NCBI GenBank assembly: GCA_040218355.1
Contig: JAVJRP010000014.1
Span: 80,831-144,830 of the forward strand
Length of the DNA stretch: 64,000 nt
Direction of reading: 5' to 3'
Origin: Devosia sp.
GTDB lineage: Bacteria; Pseudomonadota; Alphaproteobacteria; Rhizobiales; Devosiaceae
Below the pieces are notes generated by a model. It was not told the origin of the DNA and ran no database searches. It saw only the letters and a program-made list of their open reading frames with translations. The position numbers and the translations under genes are program-made. Shown piece by piece: positions 25,925-33,940 of the stretch. Numbering within the stretch: position 1 is the first letter of the stretch; each line of letters starts with the position of its first letter.

Positions 25925-27037
25925 TTACGCCCGTCCACCACGGACAGACGGATGCCAGAAGGTGACGCCCCTCTCGATGAGGGCGATCACCCCGTAGAAG
26001 GCGGACCCCGCAACCGCCGCAACAGCGATCTCCGCCCAGACCAGGTCGATGGCGAGACGCCCCACCCCGGTCGAAATCCGGAAGCCCATTCCCACAATGG
26101 GCGTTCCGAAGAATTCCGCTACGATTGCGCCGATCAAGGCCAGAGTCGAGTTGATCTTGAGGGCGTTGAATATGAAGGGGCCCGCAGCGGGGAGCCGTAG
26201 CTTCATAAGGGTTTGCCAATAGTTGGCGGCATAGGTGTGCATCAGGTCGCGTTCGATGGCCGAGGCAGCGTTGAGCCCGGCCACGGTATTGACCAGCATG
26301 GGAAAGAAGGTCATGGCGACCACGACCGCGGCCTTACTCTGCCAGTCAAAGCCGAACCACATGACCATGATGGGCGCGATGCCGATAATGGGCAGCGCTG
26401 ACATGAAATTGCCGATGGGCATGACCCCGGCCTTGAGGAAGGGCGAGCGATCCACGGCAATGGCGACGGCCAGCCCCGCCAGGCAGCCCATGGCATAGCC
26501 GGGCAGCACGGACTTAACAAAGGTCTGCACGAAATCGGCCCAGAGCGTGGGCACTTCGGCGGTCATGCGCGCCCAGATCGCCGAGGGCGGCGGCAGCAGC
26601 ACGGGCGGCACATTGGCGCCGCGGGTAATGACTTCCCAGGCGACCAGCAAAGCAAGGCCGAAAATGATCGGGATGACCAGACCCGTGCCGGTTTCGGGCA
26701 ATTGGCCCTGGCGGATGGCGGCCGACAGGCGTTCGACAAACAACCAGGCAAACGCCCAGCTCGCCACCAGCGCCCACCAGAAATGGGCGGGCATGGCCCC
26801 CTCTTCCGGCAACGCCAGGATCAGCGCCACGGCGCCGAACAGCATCAGCGCGCCGTCGAACCAGAGGCTGAACGGCAGCGCCAACCGGACCAGCGACGCT
26901 GCGCCGAGTGCAAAATAGAGGGTGAGCAACTGGGCGGTGCCAAAACTGGCAAGGCCGAACCCCAGGCCCAGCAGCGCGGCGCCGCCGGCCAGGAGGGCCA
27001 GTGCCAATTGCATGGCGGTCAGACCCGTGCTGTTCAT
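25925..27037 (-). CDS. ABC transporter permease (NitT/TauT type)
   Basis: FFPMLVNTVAGL, KLRLPAA.PFIF. Confidence 0.88.
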   Translation of the reverse strand: MNSTGLTAMQLALALLAGGAALLGLGFGLASFGTAQLLTLYFALGAASLVRLALPFSLWFDGALMLFGAVALILALPEEGAMPAHFWWALVASWAFAWLFVERLSAAIRQGQLPETGTGLVIPIIFGLALLVAWEVITRGANVPPVLLPPPSAIWARMTAEVPTLWADFVQTFVKSVLPGYAMGCLAGLAVAIAVDRSPFLKAGVMPIGNFMSALPIIGIAPIMVMWFGFDWQSKAAVVVAMTFFPMLVNTVAGLNAASAIERDLMHTYAANYWQTLMKLRLPAAGPFIFNALKINSTLALIGAIVAEFFGTPIVGMGFRISTGVGRLAIDLVWAEIAVAAVAGSAFYGVIALIERGVTFWHPSVRGGRA

Positions 27038-27900
27038 GCCTTTGCTCCCATGCGCGTATTGACCCATTTTTCAGCCGCGCCGACAATGGCGACCAGGATG
27101 GCCGCCAGGCCCGCCGCGATGAACAGGGCCGCCCAGATCTGCACGGTCTGGCCATTGTAGGAGCCGGTGAGCAGGCGCACGCCGAGGCCTCCGCCCGAAG
27201 CATTGGACAGTTCGGCCACCACTGCGCCGATCAGCGAAATGGCGATGCCCACTTTCATCGAGGCAAAGAGGAAGGGCATGGCGGCGGGCCAGCGCAGTTT
27301 CCAGAACACCTGCCAGCCATTGGCATCATAGGTGCGCATGAGATCAAGCTGGATGGCTTCGGGCGAGCGCAGCCCTTTCACCATGCCCACCACCACCGGG
27401 AAAAAGCTCAGATACATCGAGATCAGCGCCTTGGGCACCAGTCCGGTCAGCCCGACCGAACCCAGCCCCACCACCACCATGGGGGCGATGGCCAGAATGG
27501 GAATGGTCTGGCTGGCGATGATCCAGGGCATCAGCGAGCGGTCGGAGGCGTCATTGTGGATGATGGCCACCGCCAGCGCCACGCCCAGAACTGTGCCGAA
27601 GGCAAAGCCGAGCAGGGTCGCCGAGAGCGTGATCCAGGCGTGGTAGGCGAGCGAGCGGCGCGAGGTGATTTCGAGCGCCACCGTGGCGTTCCAGATTTCG
27701 GAAATCACCTGTTGCGGCGCGGGGAGCACCGGCTTGTCCTGTGCCCAGGTCTGGGCGGCAAACTCGGTAAAGGGCACATCGACCAGGTCCGCGCGCGCAT
27801 TGAGCCGCTCCTGCCAGGGCGCGTTCATCCAGATTGCAGCCGCATACCAGAGGACGATGATGGCGAGCAGAATGGTGAGGACGGGGAGGATGCGGTTCAT
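27034..27900 (-). CDS. ABC transporter permease (NitT/TauT type)
   Basis: SQTIPILAIAP, KLRWPAAMPFLF. Confidence 0.9.
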   Translation of the reverse strand: MNRILPVLTILLAIIVLWYAAAIWMNAPWQERLNARADLVDVPFTEFAAQTWAQDKPVLPAPQQVISEIWNATVALEITSRRSLAYHAWITLSATLLGFAFGTVLGVALAVAIIHNDASDRSLMPWIIASQTIPILAIAPMVVVGLGSVGLTGLVPKALISMYLSFFPVVVGMVKGLRSPEAIQLDLMRTYDANGWQVFWKLRWPAAMPFLFASMKVGIAISLIGAVVAELSNASGGGLGVRLLTGSYNGQTVQIWAALFIAAGLAAILVAIVGAAEKWVNTRMGAKA

Positions 27901-27922
27901 GTCGCCCGTCCCCGGCAGGATG

Positions 27923-28053
27923 CGCCCCCTCTCCCCTGAGGGGAGAGGGTTGGGGTGAGGGGTTCAGCGTTCGAGTGTGGCCCGGTGCGCATCTCCCGCG
28001 CTGAACCCCTCACCCGCCGCTGCGCGGCGACCTCTCCCCTCAGGGGAGAGGTG
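27923..28053. repeat. Composite palindromic repeat (empty element): two hairpin arms in inverted orientation
   Basis: CCCTCTCCCC-TGA-GGGGAGAGGG..GGGTGAGGGGTTCAG / CTGAACCCCTCACCC..CCTCTCCCC-TCA-GGGGAGAGG; arms match 32372-32416 (40/45) and 32285-32337 (50/53). Confidence 0.9.
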
Positions 28054-28084
28054 AAGGTGGCATCGTGTTCAAATGCCTCCATTT

Positions 28085-28873
28085 TCACACCGTCCCCTCG
28101 TCATAGGAATGCCCGGCCCGCAATCCTTCGCGGACCCGCGCGGCGATGGCGAGGAATTCGGGGGTTTCGCGGATATCGAGCGGGCGTTCGCGCGGCAGGG
28201 TGGATTCGATGATGTCGGTGACCCGCCCGGGGCGCGGCGACATGACCACGATGCGGGTGGACAAATAGACCGCCTCGGGGATGGAGTGGGTGACGAAACA
28301 GATGGTCTTTTCGGTGCGGGCCCAGAGCTTGAGCAATTCGGAATTGAGGTGATCGCGGACGATTTCGTCCAGCGCGCCGAAGGGTTCGTCCATCAGCAGG
28401 AGATCAGCGTCAAAGCTCAGCGCCCGGGCGATGGAGGCGCGCTGCTGCATGCCTCCGGAAAGCTGCCAGGGGTATTTTTTCTCGAAACCCGAAAGGTTCA
28501 CCAATTCCATGGTGCGCTTGATGCGCTCGGCCTGTTCCTGTGCCGAATGCCCCATGATTTCGAGCGGCAGGGCGATGTTCTTTTCGATGGTGCGCCAGGG
28601 ATAGAGCGCGGCCGCCTGGAACACATAGCCATAGGCCCGATTGCGCCGCGCTTCCTCCGGCGTCTGGCCATTGACAGTCAGCGTGCCCGAAGTGGGCTTT
28701 TCGAGATCGGCAATGGTGCGCAGGAAGGTGGTCTTGCCGCAGCCCGAAGGGCCAATGAAGGAAACGAAGTCGCCCTTCTCGATGGTGAGATTGACATCGG
28801 ACAGCGCAACGATATCGCCATCGCCGGTGGGGAAGGTGAGGCCGAGGTTCTGGGCGGAGACGACGGTGGTCAT
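28085..28873 (-). CDS. ABC transporter ATP-binding protein
   Basis: GPSGCGKT, LSGGMQQR, LLMDEPF. Confidence 0.95.
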   Translation of the reverse strand: MTTVVSAQNLGLTFPTGDGDIVALSDVNLTIEKGDFVSFIGPSGCGKTTFLRTIADLEKPTSGTLTVNGQTPEEARRNRAYGYVFQAAALYPWRTIEKNIALPLEIMGHSAQEQAERIKRTMELVNLSGFEKKYPWQLSGGMQQRASIARALSFDADLLLMDEPFGALDEIVRDHLNSELLKLWARTEKTICFVTHSIPEAVYLSTRIVVMSPRPGRVTDIIESTLPRERPLDIRETPEFLAIAARVREGLRAGHSYDEGTV

Positions 28874-28874
28874 A

Positions 28875-29048
28875 TTAGTCCTTCACGACAATCGTCACGC
28901 CCAACTCGCGCTCCACGATCTCTTTGACGGCCATGATGCCGCCAGCGCTTTTCTCGATAGCAGAGCGGAGCTTCTGATCGTGGCCCGGAAGGAAGTCCCC
29001 AGACCGAGTCTCTCCTCCGCAGCCGCATAGGCAAGGCTTCGCCGCCAT
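28875..29048 (-). CDS. 57-aa hypothetical protein with CxCxC...PGHD motif
   Basis: MAAKPCLCGCGGETRSGDFLPGHDQKLRS...; fills the hydA-ATPase gap almost exactly. Confidence 0.65.
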   Translation of the reverse strand: MAAKPCLCGCGGETRSGDFLPGHDQKLRSAIEKSAGGIMAVKEIVERELGVTIVVKD

Positions 29049-29050
29049 CC

Positions 29051-30502
29051 TCAAACCCCCGTCGCCGGAATGCCAGTGCGTTCCACCTTGCGGGGGGCGA
29101 CAATGTCCTTCCACTGGCTCAGGGCCCGGTTCACAGGGTTCTTTGCCTCGCGGGCGACGAACTTGCCGTGGCCCGGCTCGGCCTTGACCTCGCTTTCAAC
29201 GATGGAAACCTTGCCGCGGCTCAAAACGAAGCGCGGGAGGCCAGTGACCTCGAAGCCTTCAAAGACATTGTAGTCGATCACCGATTGCTGGTTGCCGGCC
29301 GAAATGGTCTTGCTTCGCTTGGGGTCCCAGACCACGAGATCGGCATCGGCGCCGACCATCACCGCACCCTTTTTGGGGTAGAGGTTGAGGATCTTGGCGA
29401 TATTGGTCGAGGTAACGGCAACGAATTCATTGGGCGTGAGGCGCCCGGTATTGACGCCCTTGGTCCAGAGGACCGGCAGGCGATCTTCGAGGCCGCCCGT
29501 GCCATTGGGGATTTTCGAGAAATTGCCGACGCCGAAACGCTTCTGATCTGTGGTGAAGGCGCAGTGGTCGGTGGCGACGCAGGAGAGCGAGCCCGCCTGC
29601 AGCCCGGCCCAGAGCGAATCCTGATGCTGCTTGTTGCGGAAGGGGGGCGACATGACCCGGCGGGCGGCATGGTCCCAATCGGGGTTGAAATATTCGCTCT
29701 CGTCCAGCGTCAAATGCTGGATCAGCGGCTCGCCATAGACCCGCATGCCCTTTTGCCGGGCGCGACGGATGGCCTCGTGAGCCTGTTCGCAGCTTGTGTG
29801 CACCACATAGAGCGGCACCCCGGCCATGTCGGCCAGCATGATGGCGCGATTGGTGGCTTCGCCTTCGACTTCGGGGGGCCGGGAATAGGCATGGCCTTCG
29901 GGGCCATTATTGCCCTCGGCGAGCAGTTTGGCGGTCATGGCGGCAACGACATCGCCGTTTTCGGCATGGACCAGCGGCAGCGCGCCGAGCGCAGCGCAAC
30001 GCTGGAAACTGGCGAACATCTCGTCGTCGTTGACCATCAACGCGCCCTTATAGGCCATGAAGTGCTTGAACGAGGTGATGCCGCGGTCGACCACCTCGGC
30101 CATTTCATTGAACACCTGCTCGCCCCACCAGGTGATGGCCATGTGGAAGGAATAATCCGTCGAGGCTTTGCCCGACTTGTTGTCCCACATTTTGAGGGCC
30201 TCAAGCAGGCTCTGGTCCGGGTTGGGCAGGCAGAAATCGACCACCATGGTGGTGCCGCCGGCCAGCGCCGCCCGCGTGCCGCTCTCGAAATCATCGGCCG
30301 AATAGGTGCCCATGAAGGGCATTTCGAGATGGGTATGCGGGTCGATGCCGCCGGGCATGATCAGGCAGCCGGTGGCGTCGAGGGTCTCGTCGCCTTTGAG
30401 GTTCTTGCCGATCTCGACAATGGTGTCGCCCTCGATCTTCACATCGGCCTCATAGCTGAGATCGGCTGTGACGATGGTGCCGTTCTTGATGACTGTGCTC
30501 AT
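29051..30502 (-). CDS. hydA: Dihydropyrimidinase
   Basis: PGGIDPHTH, SFKHFMAYKG, VHAENGD, ATDHCAF. Confidence 0.95.
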   Translation of the reverse strand: MSTVIKNGTIVTADLSYEADVKIEGDTIVEIGKNLKGDETLDATGCLIMPGGIDPHTHLEMPFMGTYSADDFESGTRAALAGGTTMVVDFCLPNPDQSLLEALKMWDNKSGKASTDYSFHMAITWWGEQVFNEMAEVVDRGITSFKHFMAYKGALMVNDDEMFASFQRCAALGALPLVHAENGDVVAAMTAKLLAEGNNGPEGHAYSRPPEVEGEATNRAIMLADMAGVPLYVVHTSCEQAHEAIRRARQKGMRVYGEPLIQHLTLDESEYFNPDWDHAARRVMSPPFRNKQHQDSLWAGLQAGSLSCVATDHCAFTTDQKRFGVGNFSKIPNGTGGLEDRLPVLWTKGVNTGRLTPNEFVAVTSTNIAKILNLYPKKGAVMVGADADLVVWDPKRSKTISAGNQQSVIDYNVFEGFEVTGLPRFVLSRGKVSIVESEVKAEPGHGKFVAREAKNPVNRALSQWKDIVAPRKVERTGIPATGV

Positions 30503-30582
30503 AATGCGTTCCCTTGTCTTTTGGTGTCACACCCTGCCTGCGCCTTCTCCTGAGCGCCGTGGCGAGTGTGAAATTCCTGAAA

Positions 30583-31833
30583 CTACTCCACGATCCCCGC
30601 TGTCTCGACCACGGCGTGGAACAGCACGTCGGCTCCTGCGGTCGCCCATTCCTTCGAAATGTCCTCGTCCTCGTTGTGGCTGAGGCCATCGACGCAGGGG
30701 CACATGACCATGGCGGTGGGGTAGAGCCGATTGATCCAGCAGGCGTCGTGCCCGGCGCCCGAGACGATGTTGCGGTGGCTGTAGCCGAGCCGGTCGGCGG
30801 CGTCGCGGACGGCCTTGACGCAGTTTTCGTCGAAGGTGACGGGGTCGAAATGGCCGGTCGGCTCGATGGACAGCCCGAGGCCCAGTTCCTCGGCGATTTT
30901 TGCCGCCTCGGCCTCGATCTGCTCGCGCATCGAGGTGAGCTTGTCCAGTTCTGGCGAGCGGATGTCTATGGTGAACACCGCCTTGCCCGGAATGACATTG
31001 CGCGAATTGGGATAGACATTGGCCTGCCCCACTGCGCCCACGGCATTGGGCTGATGCGCCATGGCGATACGGTGCACTGCCTCGGTCACGCGGGCCATGC
31101 CGAGGCCCGCATTGACGCGCATGTTCATCGGGGTCGAGCCGGTATGGGCGTCCTTGCCGGTCAGCGTCACTTCGAGCCACCACAGGCCCTGGCCGTGGGT
31201 GACGACGCCGATATCCTTGCCCTCGGCCTCAAGGATCGGACCCTGCTCGATGTGCAGCTCGAAAAAGGCGTGCATCTTGCGCGCGCCGACCTGTTCCTCG
31301 CCCTTCCAGCCGATGCGCTCGAGCTCATCGCCGAAACGCAGGCCTTCGGCATCCTTGCGGTCAAAGGCCCAGTCGAGTTCATGCATGCCGGCAAAGACGC
31401 CCGAGGCCAGCATGGCAGGCGCAAAACGGGTGCCCTCCTCATTGGTCCAGTTGGTGACGACAATGGGATGGCGGGTCTTGATACCCAGATCATTGAGCGA
31501 GCGGATGACTTCGAGGCCGCCCAGCACGCCGAGCACCCCATCATATTTGCCGCCGGTGGGCTGGGTATCGAGATGGCTGCCGACATAGACCGGCAGGGCA
31601 TCGGGATCGGTGCCTTCGCGGCGGGCGAACATGGTGCCCATCTGGTCGACGCCCAGGGTCAGCCCGGCCTCGTCGCACCAGCGGGCAAACAGCTCGCGCC
31701 CTTCCTTGTCGGCATCGGTCAGGGTCTGGCGGTTATTGCCGCCGGCCACGCCCGGGCCGATTTTTGCCATCTCCATCAGGCTGTCCCAGAGCCGGTCGCC
31801 ATTGATCCGAAGGTTTTCGCCGGGAGAGGTCAT
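30583..31833 (-). CDS. Zn-dependent N-carbamoyl-beta-alanine amidohydrolase (beta-ureidopropionase, M20)
   Basis: GSHLDTQPTGGKYDG, NEEG.RF, ELHIEQGP, SGAGHDA. Confidence 0.9.
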   Translation of the reverse strand: MTSPGENLRINGDRLWDSLMEMAKIGPGVAGGNNRQTLTDADKEGRELFARWCDEAGLTLGVDQMGTMFARREGTDPDALPVYVGSHLDTQPTGGKYDGVLGVLGGLEVIRSLNDLGIKTRHPIVVTNWTNEEGTRFAPAMLASGVFAGMHELDWAFDRKDAEGLRFGDELERIGWKGEEQVGARKMHAFFELHIEQGPILEAEGKDIGVVTHGQGLWWLEVTLTGKDAHTGSTPMNMRVNAGLGMARVTEAVHRIAMAHQPNAVGAVGQANVYPNSRNVIPGKAVFTIDIRSPELDKLTSMREQIEAEAAKIAEELGLGLSIEPTGHFDPVTFDENCVKAVRDAADRLGYSHRNIVSGAGHDACWINRLYPTAMVMCPCVDGLSHNEDEDISKEWATAGADVLFHAVVETAGIVE

Positions 31834-31838
31834 GATGC

Positions 31839-32438
31839 TTACTCGCTGATAGGGTCGGCGTTGAGCCGATAGCTGCGTTTCTTGGTGGAAGCGGCGCGTG
31901 CGCCGCTGACCCCTCGCCCCTGAGGGGAGAGGGTGGCCGGAGCGAAGCGGAGGTCGGGTGAGGGGTCCATTGCCAGCACACTGGCTATGGCGTCCCGAAC
32001 GGCTCCCGGATGGAGCAGAATGTCCCGGTTCCAGAAGCGAAGTACGGCGTAGCCTTGGGCATTGAGATAGGCCGTGCGCATTTCATCGCGCGCGCTTTCA
32101 GCATGCTGTCCGCCATCGGCTTCGACGATCAGGGCCGTCTCTCGGCAGACAAAGTCGGCGATGTAAGGACCAATACAGAGCTGGCGGACGAACTTGTGGC
32201 CATCCAGCTTACGGCCCCGCAGCAGGCTCCAAAGCTTTGCCTCGGCATCAGTGCTGTTGAGTCGCAGGGCGCGGGCCCGCGATACTGAACCCCTCACCCG
32301 ACGCTTCGCGTCGACCTCTCCCCTCAGGGGAGAGGTGGGGACCGGTGCTCCAGAGGAAGTGCCGGAGCCTTCGCCCCCCCTCCCCTGAGGGGAGAAGGGT
32401 GGAGTGAGAGGTTCAGACTGTCTGTGCCCTCTCACCAT
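31839..32438 (-). CDS. DUF559 (Vsr-like/YcjD) endonuclease-domain protein with repeat-encoded termini
   Basis: RARALR...TDAEAKLW..LR.RKL.G.KF.RQ..IGPYIADF.C....LIVEADGGQH...RD..RTAYL...GY.VLRFWN; true start may be GTG 32297. Confidence 0.85.
   Translation of the reverse strand: MVRGHRQSEPLTPPFSPQGRGGEGSGTSSGAPVPTSPLRGEVDAKRRVRGSVSRARALRLNSTDAEAKLWSLLRGRKLDGHKFVRQLCIGPYIADFVCRETALIVEADGGQHAESARDEMRTAYLNAQGYAVLRFWNRDILLHPGAVRDAIASVLAMDPSPDLRFAPATLSPQGRGVSGARAASTKKRSYRLNADPISE
31911..31966. repeat. Left hairpin arm flanking the DUF559 core
   Basis: CCCTCGCCCC-TGA-GGGGAGAGGG..GCGAAGC..GTCGGGTGAGGGGT; inverted relative to 32289-32335. Confidence 0.85.
32285..32436. repeat. Right hairpin arm (32285-32337) plus an extra left arm (32372-32416) and a truncated partner (32428-32436)
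   Basis: Direct sequence comparison with 27923-28053. Confidence 0.85.
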
Positions 32439-32443
32439 GTTGC

Positions 32444-33940
<1,497 letters not shown>

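Follow-up and report, generated by a model that had tools for sequence, protein, structure and literature searches.

Dispersed repeats of the BoxC/PIT/triplex-motif type have been known since the 1990s, but no function or means of spreading is known for them, and the importance of the mirror block in cells is unproven. In E. coli, an inverted pair is made up of one type-A and one type-B arm with ~16 nt in between, and CCG is the loop of the type-B arm (PMC4666352). Holder et al. (2015) saw no footprint of a triplex in E. coli, where guanines were methylated as in duplex DNA, and according to their paper RNA does not form triplexes of the purine motif (PMC4666352). In earlier work, PIT elements had no promoter or terminator effect in E. 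coli.

The 64,000-nt stretch of Devosia sp. DNA analysed here (the window, to which all plain coordinates refer) contains at 27927–28052 an element that is very probably a member of the BoxC/PIT/TMECO dispersed repeats, in their known inverted-pair form. The published TMECO pattern, CCCTCNCCC-N3-6-GGGNGAGGG-N3-GGGNGAGGG, gave one exact match at 27927–27961 on the plus strand and none in 100 shuffles; the second arm, which carries a mini-hairpin, fits the pattern only if a 16-nt mini-hairpin is accepted as loop 2. Like the described repeats, the family is intergenic and multi-copy, varies in number between close relatives, forms inverted pairs of two arm types around a short spacer, and lies in neighbourhoods of unusually variable intergenic DNA. 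It differs from the E. coli repeats in that one arm has, at the place of the 3-nt CCG loop, a 16-nt linker that forms a covarying G-N-A mini-hairpin. No mobility gene was reported for the repeats of PMC4666352, whereas the arms here also enclose DUF559 genes; and, unlike those repeats, the element in the window sits inside an operon and is translated through.

Three other classes of repeat invite comparison. With REPIN-RAYT systems the family shares inverted doublets of a short palindromic unit, of which many are gene-less and a few enclose a nuclease-fold gene, as well as a long, largely vertical persistence with copy numbers that differ between species. In contrast to REPIN-RAYT, the enclosed gene here is a PD-(D/E)XK or Vsr-like DUF559 gene, the unit has a mirror third block and the spacer varies between copies; a search of the genome, which is 88% complete, for the RAYT domain Y1_Tnp (PF01797) returned no match. 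The resemblance to MITEs lies in a small element with inverted ends whose gene-less form outnumbers the gene-bearing one, although there is no demonstrable target-site duplication and no transposase parent, and the ends are not plain copies of the two ends of the gene-bearing cassette. Rickettsia palindromic elements are palindromic repeats that are open in a reading frame and translated. Here, in contrast, the repeat is read in a short ORF of its own, which overlaps the stop and start of its neighbours, and not as an insertion within a protein.

Sequence reading and inverted-repeat analysis resolve 27927–28052 as a complete, gene-less paired triplex-motif repeat, with its parts in the order hairpin A, TTG, G-rich third block, 29-nt loop, inverted third block, 15-nt mini-hairpin and hairpin A. 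In the short-linker arm, hairpin A (27927–27949), identified from inverted repeats and the TMECO pattern match, consists of a pyrimidine block (27927–27936), the loop TGA (27937–27939) and a purine block (27940–27949). It is followed by the 3-nt second loop TTG (27950–27952), at a position equivalent to TTA or CCG in E. coli (PMC4666352, Table 1). The G-rich third block, GGGTGAGGGG followed by TTCAGCG (27953–27969), mirrors the purine block and forms one arm of a 17-bp inner inverted repeat of 100% complementarity, the other arm of which, the complement of the third block, lies at 27999–28015. Between these inner arms is a variable central spacer of 29 nt (27970–27998), or 33 nt if measured from TTCAG to CTGAA, which differs between aligned copies and orthologues. 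The mini-hairpin linker (28015–28029, minus strand), recognised by covariation, has a 6-bp stem and the triloop GCA on the minus strand and occupies the position of the 3-nt loop of the E. coli type-B arm, and hairpin A of the mini-hairpin arm follows at 28030–28052 (inverted-repeat analysis). The canonical strand of this mini copy is the minus strand, on which the order is hairpin A (28052–28030), mini-hairpin (28029–28015), third block (28015–27999, as the complement), spacer, 27969–27953, linker and hairpin A (27949–27927).

The element lies between two co-directional genes on the minus strand, 34 nt after an ABC transporter ATPase gene (28085–28873; Pfam ABC_tran, E = 2.8e-32) and 28 nt before an ABC transporter permease gene (27034–27900; Pfam BPD_transp_1, E = 5.4e-24). 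A bridging ORF of 63 codons on the same strand (27897–28088) reads through the whole repeat, from a GTG that overlaps the ATPase stop (GTGTGA) to a TGA that overlaps the permease ATG (ATGA). Watson–Crick folding of the element as single-stranded DNA gives a computed energy of -58 kcal/mol, compared to -28.5 ± 3.3 for shuffles (z = -8.9). In the minimum-energy fold of 27923–28055 the two A hairpins pair with each other, producing a three-way junction from which the mini-hairpin branches off, across from the 5-nt linker. This long-range pairing was rejected as the selected fold since, although it is the computed minimum-energy form, it is not maintained in the second subfamily described below, where both sides of the change fall inside one arm.

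Our best explanation, to which as a whole we assign a probability of roughly one half, is that of a paired triplex-motif repeat selected for its structure, with a DUF559 partner and a read-through ORF. Two motif arms would face each other with their third blocks on the inside, separated by a free spacer, each arm comprising a pyrimidine block and its paired purine block, then a linker and a G-rich block that mirrors the purine block; one of the arms would have, in place of the 3-nt linker, a 5–6-bp mini-hairpin closed on a G-N-A triloop. The selected trait would be the folding of each arm on its own strand into Watson–Crick hairpins, and we lean slightly towards the further step that selection also favours a fold-back in which the mirror block lies against the hairpin and the compact mini-hairpin forms the turn. 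The element would act at the DNA level, not as coding sequence or RNA, and the family would be a long-lived, vertically persisting, expanding and decaying selfish or structural repeat, which resembles REPINs more closely than MITEs. The Vsr-like DUF559 protein, a putative nuclease, is a tentative candidate for a partner acting in trans, and the insert would be tolerated at the ATPase/permease junction by virtue of the ORF running from the ATPase stop to the permease start.

The 3.5-Mb genome of the window (G000) holds ~10 full pairs together with solo hairpins, and each full pair has one arm with a 4–5-nt linker and another with the mini-hairpin linker. A covariance model built on 33 pairs, 31 of which combine a short-linker with a mini-hairpin arm, was run on 41 genomes of the genus and gave from 0 to at least 84 matches per genome, which supplies the copy number that the earlier note on this stretch, made from the sequence without database searches, had called for. 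A pattern for the mini-hairpin arm, in which the stem was left free and complementarity was not required, matched more than 119 contigs, among the matches listed, with Devosia, Kaistia, Bradyrhizobium, Ancylobacter, Methylopila, Afipia, Rhodopseudomonas, Breoghania, Cucumibacter, Lysobacter and Archangium represented in these matches. Among the same listed matches, 83 mini-hairpin arms could be classified as members of mini pairs (52), solo or other (27), at a contig edge (3) or preceding a DUF559 gene (1). Copies from Afipia, Rhodopseudomonas, Breoghania and Archangium have identical anatomy, and from Hyphomicrobiales to Lysobacter and Archangium the G-N-A mini-hairpin arm is identical in sequence except within its stem. 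Every copy examined is intergenic. Two congeners, G008 and G004, show bursts of near-identical copies with common outer flanks; in these (L024–L034 and L038–L043, respectively) the repeat unit exceeds the distance from hairpin to hairpin, with ~25–35 nt on the left and 18–30 nt on the right also conserved.

Arms and spacer evolve very differently. At up to three mismatches, the 33-nt spacer is absent from the other 100 of 101 genus genomes. In a near-identical strain, represented by a single contig assembled through repeats (run X7), the arms show no differences and ~200 nt of flank show four, as against 13 substitutions and two indels in the 30-nt spacer (27968–27997); going by this comparison, the spacer may be swapped or hypermutable. 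Between G000 and G008 the arms are ~97% alike while flanks and spacer have diverged to ~70% or less, so the arms must be either strongly constrained or homogenised. An origin of the spacer as a remnant of the ends of a DUF559 gene was considered and rejected, the only resemblance being a weak one (CGCGGG...GC.CACC) to the first codons. Two RNA runs with related sequence yielded contigs of ~94%-identical relatives, which end near the junction.

To what extent is structure itself conserved? In an alignment of 33 copies from eight genomes, the four-helix structure is paired in 91.9% of cells, compared to 87.5% in shuffles (none of 500 as high), and sliding the partners drops pairing to 47–59%; 11 pairs show changes on both sides. 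The mini-hairpin is 97.5% paired in these copies, with pair 29-42 occurring as GC (17), AU (9), CG (2) and GU (1), and pair 32-40 as GC (18) and CG (15). Across the 83 arms, drawn from Alpha- and Gammaproteobacteria and Myxococcota, 77 stems of 12 types are perfectly complementary, whereas shuffles gave 31 on average and 40 at most. When the linkers of the genus were counted by eye, ~51 of 61 folded without mismatch and 40 of 45 triloops were G-N-A; C-GNA-G mini-hairpins are exceptionally stable in DNA. These compensatory changes show that selection is keeping the hairpin structure. The earlier note had proposed as much from a single pair of copies, and the covariation for which it looked to a larger alignment is indeed present, with compensatory changes recurring in both the 33-copy alignment and the 83-arm set.

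The third block adds a constraint of another kind. In subfamily 2 (19 of 61 copies, in several species), T:A replaces C:G in hairpin A and A replaces G in the third block, a three-way change from C:G·G to T:A·A at the positions of one base triad in a purine-motif fold-back, which amounts to about one subfamily split plus a few rarer states and hence to few independent events. The change leaves an A.C mismatch in the inner Watson–Crick stem, as seen in 11 aligned copies. In a blind scan of pyrimidine/purine hairpins in the collected sequences, the asymmetric ones had a mirror-only third block in 290 cases versus a direct-only one in 12, with three matched states of the variable positions. The mirror symmetry of the third block is beyond explanation by hairpin pairing or a symmetric dimer site. 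At the same time, the inner inverted repeat also shows Watson–Crick compensation, both in the pair GTGAGAGG/CCTCTCAC at 32403–32436 and at some pairs of the 33-copy alignment, and the coexistence of this compensation with the mirror constraint implies two incompatible folds. Because the triad change follows the triplex register and breaks Watson–Crick pairing of the inner stem, a constraint at the DNA level, on the mirror, is favoured, and we consider DNA-level selection likely on comparative grounds. Against it stand the duplex-like guanine methylation of the E. coli repeats in vivo (PMC4666352), the small number of independent triad changes and the compensation in the inner stem. The earlier note had placed selection probably at the DNA level; selection on structure is borne out, and the DNA level, to which mirror covariation and G-N-A triloops point, is plausible only. 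Natural compensatory changes that keep the hairpins and the Hoogsteen-register mirror, even at the cost of a Watson–Crick pair, provide comparative evidence for a selected fold-back potential. The 30-nt spacers of subfamily 2 (L039–L043, L048, L057, L060) contain a conserved small hairpin, GCC-GAGA-GGC, near their 3' end.

Much of the hairpin evidence could equally be read at the level of RNA, since compensation within a hairpin suits RNA and DNA alike. The repeat would then be a REP/BIME-type operon element whose hairpins shield the upstream ATPase mRNA against 3' exonucleases or set the ratio of ATPase to permease, with selection acting on the RNA hairpins, a reading that we regard as unlikely. 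Its setting agrees with such a role, between two same-strand genes, 34 nt after one and 28 nt before the next, and so do cells of the alignment that are compatible with G.U pairing on the canonical strand, for example pair 27-44, which is UG in 10 copies. The orientation of neighbouring genes relative to the canonical strand points the same way in the genus sample (14 sense tandem, 3 antisense, 4 convergent and 0 divergent), but the strand bias is lost in the cross-taxon sample (9 sense, 9 antisense, 9 convergent and 3 divergent), and a transcription-strand bias was therefore rejected as a general property of the family. Avoidance of divergent intergenic regions, which hold 3 of 51 copies in both samples together, is the only general orientation property and fits an RNA element. 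Replication-strand bias was not significant in a rough count of 36 high-scoring copies in the single-contig genome G004 (23 versus 13, assuming the origin at coordinate 0).

Several observations count against the RNA reading. First, the triad change of subfamily 2 makes an A.C mismatch on the sense strand. Second, RNA hairpins offer no explanation for the mirror symmetry of the third block, purine-motif triplexes being said not to form in RNA (PMC4666352). Third, ribosomes translating the bridging ORF would melt the structure. Lastly, 27700–28300 contains no terminator-like site (GC-rich hairpin with a T run) and no promoter-like site, and 27500–32800 gave only sub-threshold chance matches to miRNA models in Rfam and no RNA family. 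PIT elements of E. coli, too, were without promoter or terminator effect in earlier work.

Also in the window is a sister cassette (31907–32337, minus strand), which consists of a 5' arm (32285–32337), a DUF559 gene (~31970–32284; Pfam DUF559, E = 1.1e-35) and a 3' arm (31907–31969). The 5' arm comprises hairpin A, a GAA mini-hairpin and a third block; the 3' arm has a linker of 22 nt, as against 3 nt in the mini copy, and for this reason aligns at only 62% when no gaps are allowed. The earlier note had described the mini copy as an empty version of this cassette with the same two arms. For the right arm, its count was reproduced, 28001–28053 matching 32285–32337 at 50 of 53 positions (94%). 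Read from the sequence, two of the three differences are the two sides of one mini-hairpin pair (CGCCGC/GCGGCG versus CGACGC/GCGTCG), and the third is the middle base of the loop, TGC versus TTC (GCA/GAA on the minus strand), again as it had stated. For the left arm, the match of 27923–27967 with 32372–32416 holds at 40 of 45 (89%), but 32372–32416 is not an arm of the nuclease-bearing copy. It falls within a third, decayed copy (32372–32436, minus strand; weak covariance-model match at 32374–32465), beyond the right arm of the nuclease-bearing one, with a mismatched hairpin A and a third block in which, as the note had observed, GTGAGAGG pairs with CCTCTCAC across an 11-nt loop. The mini copy is thus rightly called a gene-less relative of the repeat arms around the DUF559 gene, although the 22-nt linker of the cassette 3' arm means that it is not a simple deletion derivative.

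DUF559 genes occur in 32 of 41 congeners and are almost always nested between such arms. All 20 examined have hairpin A, a covarying mini-hairpin and a third block directly 5' of the gene, in sense, and the 3' arm, where present, has the conserved 22-nt linker. The mini-hairpin of the mini copy is letter-identical to that in the cassette 5' arms of G008, G031 (L074) and Devosia sp. LC5, and the G038 arm (L077) combines the same mini-hairpin with a different third block. At the junction between carbamoylase and hydantoinase genes, G008 (L264, C10:76200–77500) has both the arms and the DUF559 gene, and G000 has neither, the window showing a plain 80-nt spacer with no repeat (30503–30582), so the cassette comes and goes as a unit. 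The site of the cassette in the window is occupied in several congeners; in the three nearest relatives it is 135–148 nt of spacer that includes a decayed hairpin. Across genomes, the number of DUF559 genes correlates with the number of repeats (rho = 0.52, uncorrected for phylogeny; top repeat counts at least 84), and the three repeat-free genomes have no DUF559. The gene is not required for persistence of the repeats, since G048 (99% complete) keeps 58 repeat matches and G009 keeps 29, both without DUF559.

The relation between DUF559 and the repeats is in our judgement a strong association without a known mechanism. The sister-cassette protein has DUF559, the domain of Caulobacter VsrA, a mismatch endonuclease that provokes an SOS response and damages DNA in vivo (PMC12907096). 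VsrA is functionally tied to a cytosine methyltransferase and no repeat arms are reported for it (PMC12907096), unlike the arm-enclosed DUF559 genes here. The papers examined that mention DUF559, or deal with intrastrand triplexes or BoxC, draw no link between the two, and the association would supply an enzyme candidate for BoxC-type repeats.

Some further features of the cassettes may be mentioned. Judging from the spacing in many of them (L065, L071, L076 and L083, among others), where the third block lies 4–8 nt before the DUF559 start, this block may double as the ribosome-binding site of the gene. In the cassette of the window there is no ATG after the third block, and the candidate starts are a GTG inside the block or the ATG at 32438, the latter giving a 199-aa protein that reads through three repeat arms. 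Two other DUF559 genes of G000 (C5:696924–697244 and C17:274231–274548; L002 and L003), one of them broken by a TAG, lie between arms that share this architecture yet differ in sequence, with the third blocks GGGGAGGGGGG and GGGTGGGGGT. Judged by their flanks, G046, G034 and G038 also carry a complete DUF559 cassette, both arms included, at the carbamoylase/hydantoinase junction.

Whether the family spreads by insertion can be examined at the ATPase/permease junction, which we compared in 17 species. Four orthologous junctions are empty, with stop and start overlapping and no insert; two are short, with spacers of 46 and 67 nt, one of them resembling a decayed solo hairpin; five hold a repeat of the same family; four hold other triplex-motif families, with arms tail to tail in two; and two are otherwise filled. 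The G008 junction has near-identical arms around an unrelated spacer. On a tree of the flanking genes these states are patchy, with the nearest relatives of the window lacking the element and G008 lying across the midpoint root. The short strings shared at the junction (TGAA, TGTGA) coincide with the required stop/start overlaps. At a second site (C18:123116), a 97%-identical relative has an empty allele whose whole intergenic region is different. Neither at this site nor at the junction in the 17 species could a clean insertion be found or a target duplication, for which the earlier note had proposed such a comparison of occupied and empty alleles, be demonstrated.

These data bear on the origin proposed in the earlier note, in which the mini copy would be a simple MITE that arose from the DUF559 cassette by internal deletion and is mobilised in trans. 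The close match of its mini-hairpin arm to the cassette 5' arm (50/53), the mini-hairpin shared with the cassettes of G008, G031 and Devosia sp. LC5, the excess of gene-less over gene-bearing arms (79, that is 52 in mini pairs and 27 solo, to 1) and the bursts of near-identical copies with shared outer flanks in G008 and G004 are all what such an origin would produce. The second arm, however, is of the other type, with a 4–5-nt linker (CCAAC) against the conserved 22-nt linker of the cassette, and the spacer only weakly resembles the first codons of the gene. Moreover, no target duplication was found, the comparison at C18 points to replacement of the intergenic region and not to a clean insertion, the copy at the junction is common to species on both sides of the flank-tree root although the flanks have diverged, and DUF559 is not a known transposase. 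We consider a MITE origin very unlikely, and the designation 'non-autonomous MITE-like derivative' is not supported for an element with no demonstrable target-site duplication, no transposase and a second arm of another type, whose copies persist in distant congeners.

The reverse order of events would make the mini copy an empty homing site, with the paired repeat coming first and a DUF559 gene of homing type copying itself into the spacer by break repair. A homing nuclease with the Vsr fold exists, I-Bth0305I. In addition, the DUF559 gene always sits exactly at the position of the spacer, and in the near-identical strain the spacer alone is replaced, with arms and flanks kept, as gene conversion primed by the arms would do; the SOS response caused in vivo by Caulobacter VsrA also fits (PMC12907096). 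On the other hand, the 80-nt repeat-free spacer of G000 faces arms plus gene in G008 at the carbamoylase/hydantoinase junction, so that arms and gene move together; we found no case of a junction occupied by a mini pair in one species and by a gene-bearing pair in a second; and the cassette 3' arm is unlike that of the mini pairs. We think this scenario improbable, to about the same degree as the MITE origin. One could also imagine that the arms are kept because of their fold, that the fold of the arms on single-stranded DNA, triplex or three-way junction, serves as a recognition and cutting site for DUF559, and that repair from other copies would homogenise the arms, swap the spacers and occasionally copy the gene. 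We give this mechanism little credence; if true, it would constitute a structure-targeted, homing-like system that explains BoxC repeats.

How can a repeat be accommodated between two genes whose stop and start otherwise overlap? In all 13 non-empty orthologues (L005–L021), one frame links the ATPase stop to the permease, in 12 through an ORF ending on the permease start and in G009 as an in-frame fusion, and the start of the bridging ORF is an ATG or GTG overlapping the ATPase stop, whatever the insert. All 11 non-coding inserts, from at least four repeat families and two short spacers, are 1 mod 3 in length and open in the coupling frame. With a probability of being open of 0.12–0.68 per insert, and a further 1/3 for phase, the joint chance is ~1e-9 for about eight independent inserts. 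The bridging peptides are unrelated between insert families, and versions of 17–24 codons exist; because the peptides are unrelated, translational coupling is what is kept. Other copies of the repeat are not generally bridged and are often closed in all frames. Taken as a comparison of sequences, the junction shows a bridging frame under selection, which would preserve the translational coupling of ATPase and permease.

That the 63-aa protein of the bridging ORF is the functional unit, and the repeat merely its coding sequence, is extremely improbable, for although no non-empty orthologue lacks the open, phased frame, the peptides have no common sequence between insert families and shrink to 17–24 codons, the conserved features are the start overlap, the stop overlap and the phase only, and other repeat copies are often closed in all frames. 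On the reading preferred here, of a repeat selected for its folding and tolerated through its open frame, such repeats can occupy operons by virtue of a phased read-through ORF that relays translational coupling. Two of the orthologous junctions have inserts of other kinds. In G009 (L009), the 374-nt insert has a frame that joins the permease in phase and resembles a small membrane segment; in G002 (L018), a 501-nt ORF with a signal-peptide-like start overlaps both neighbours.
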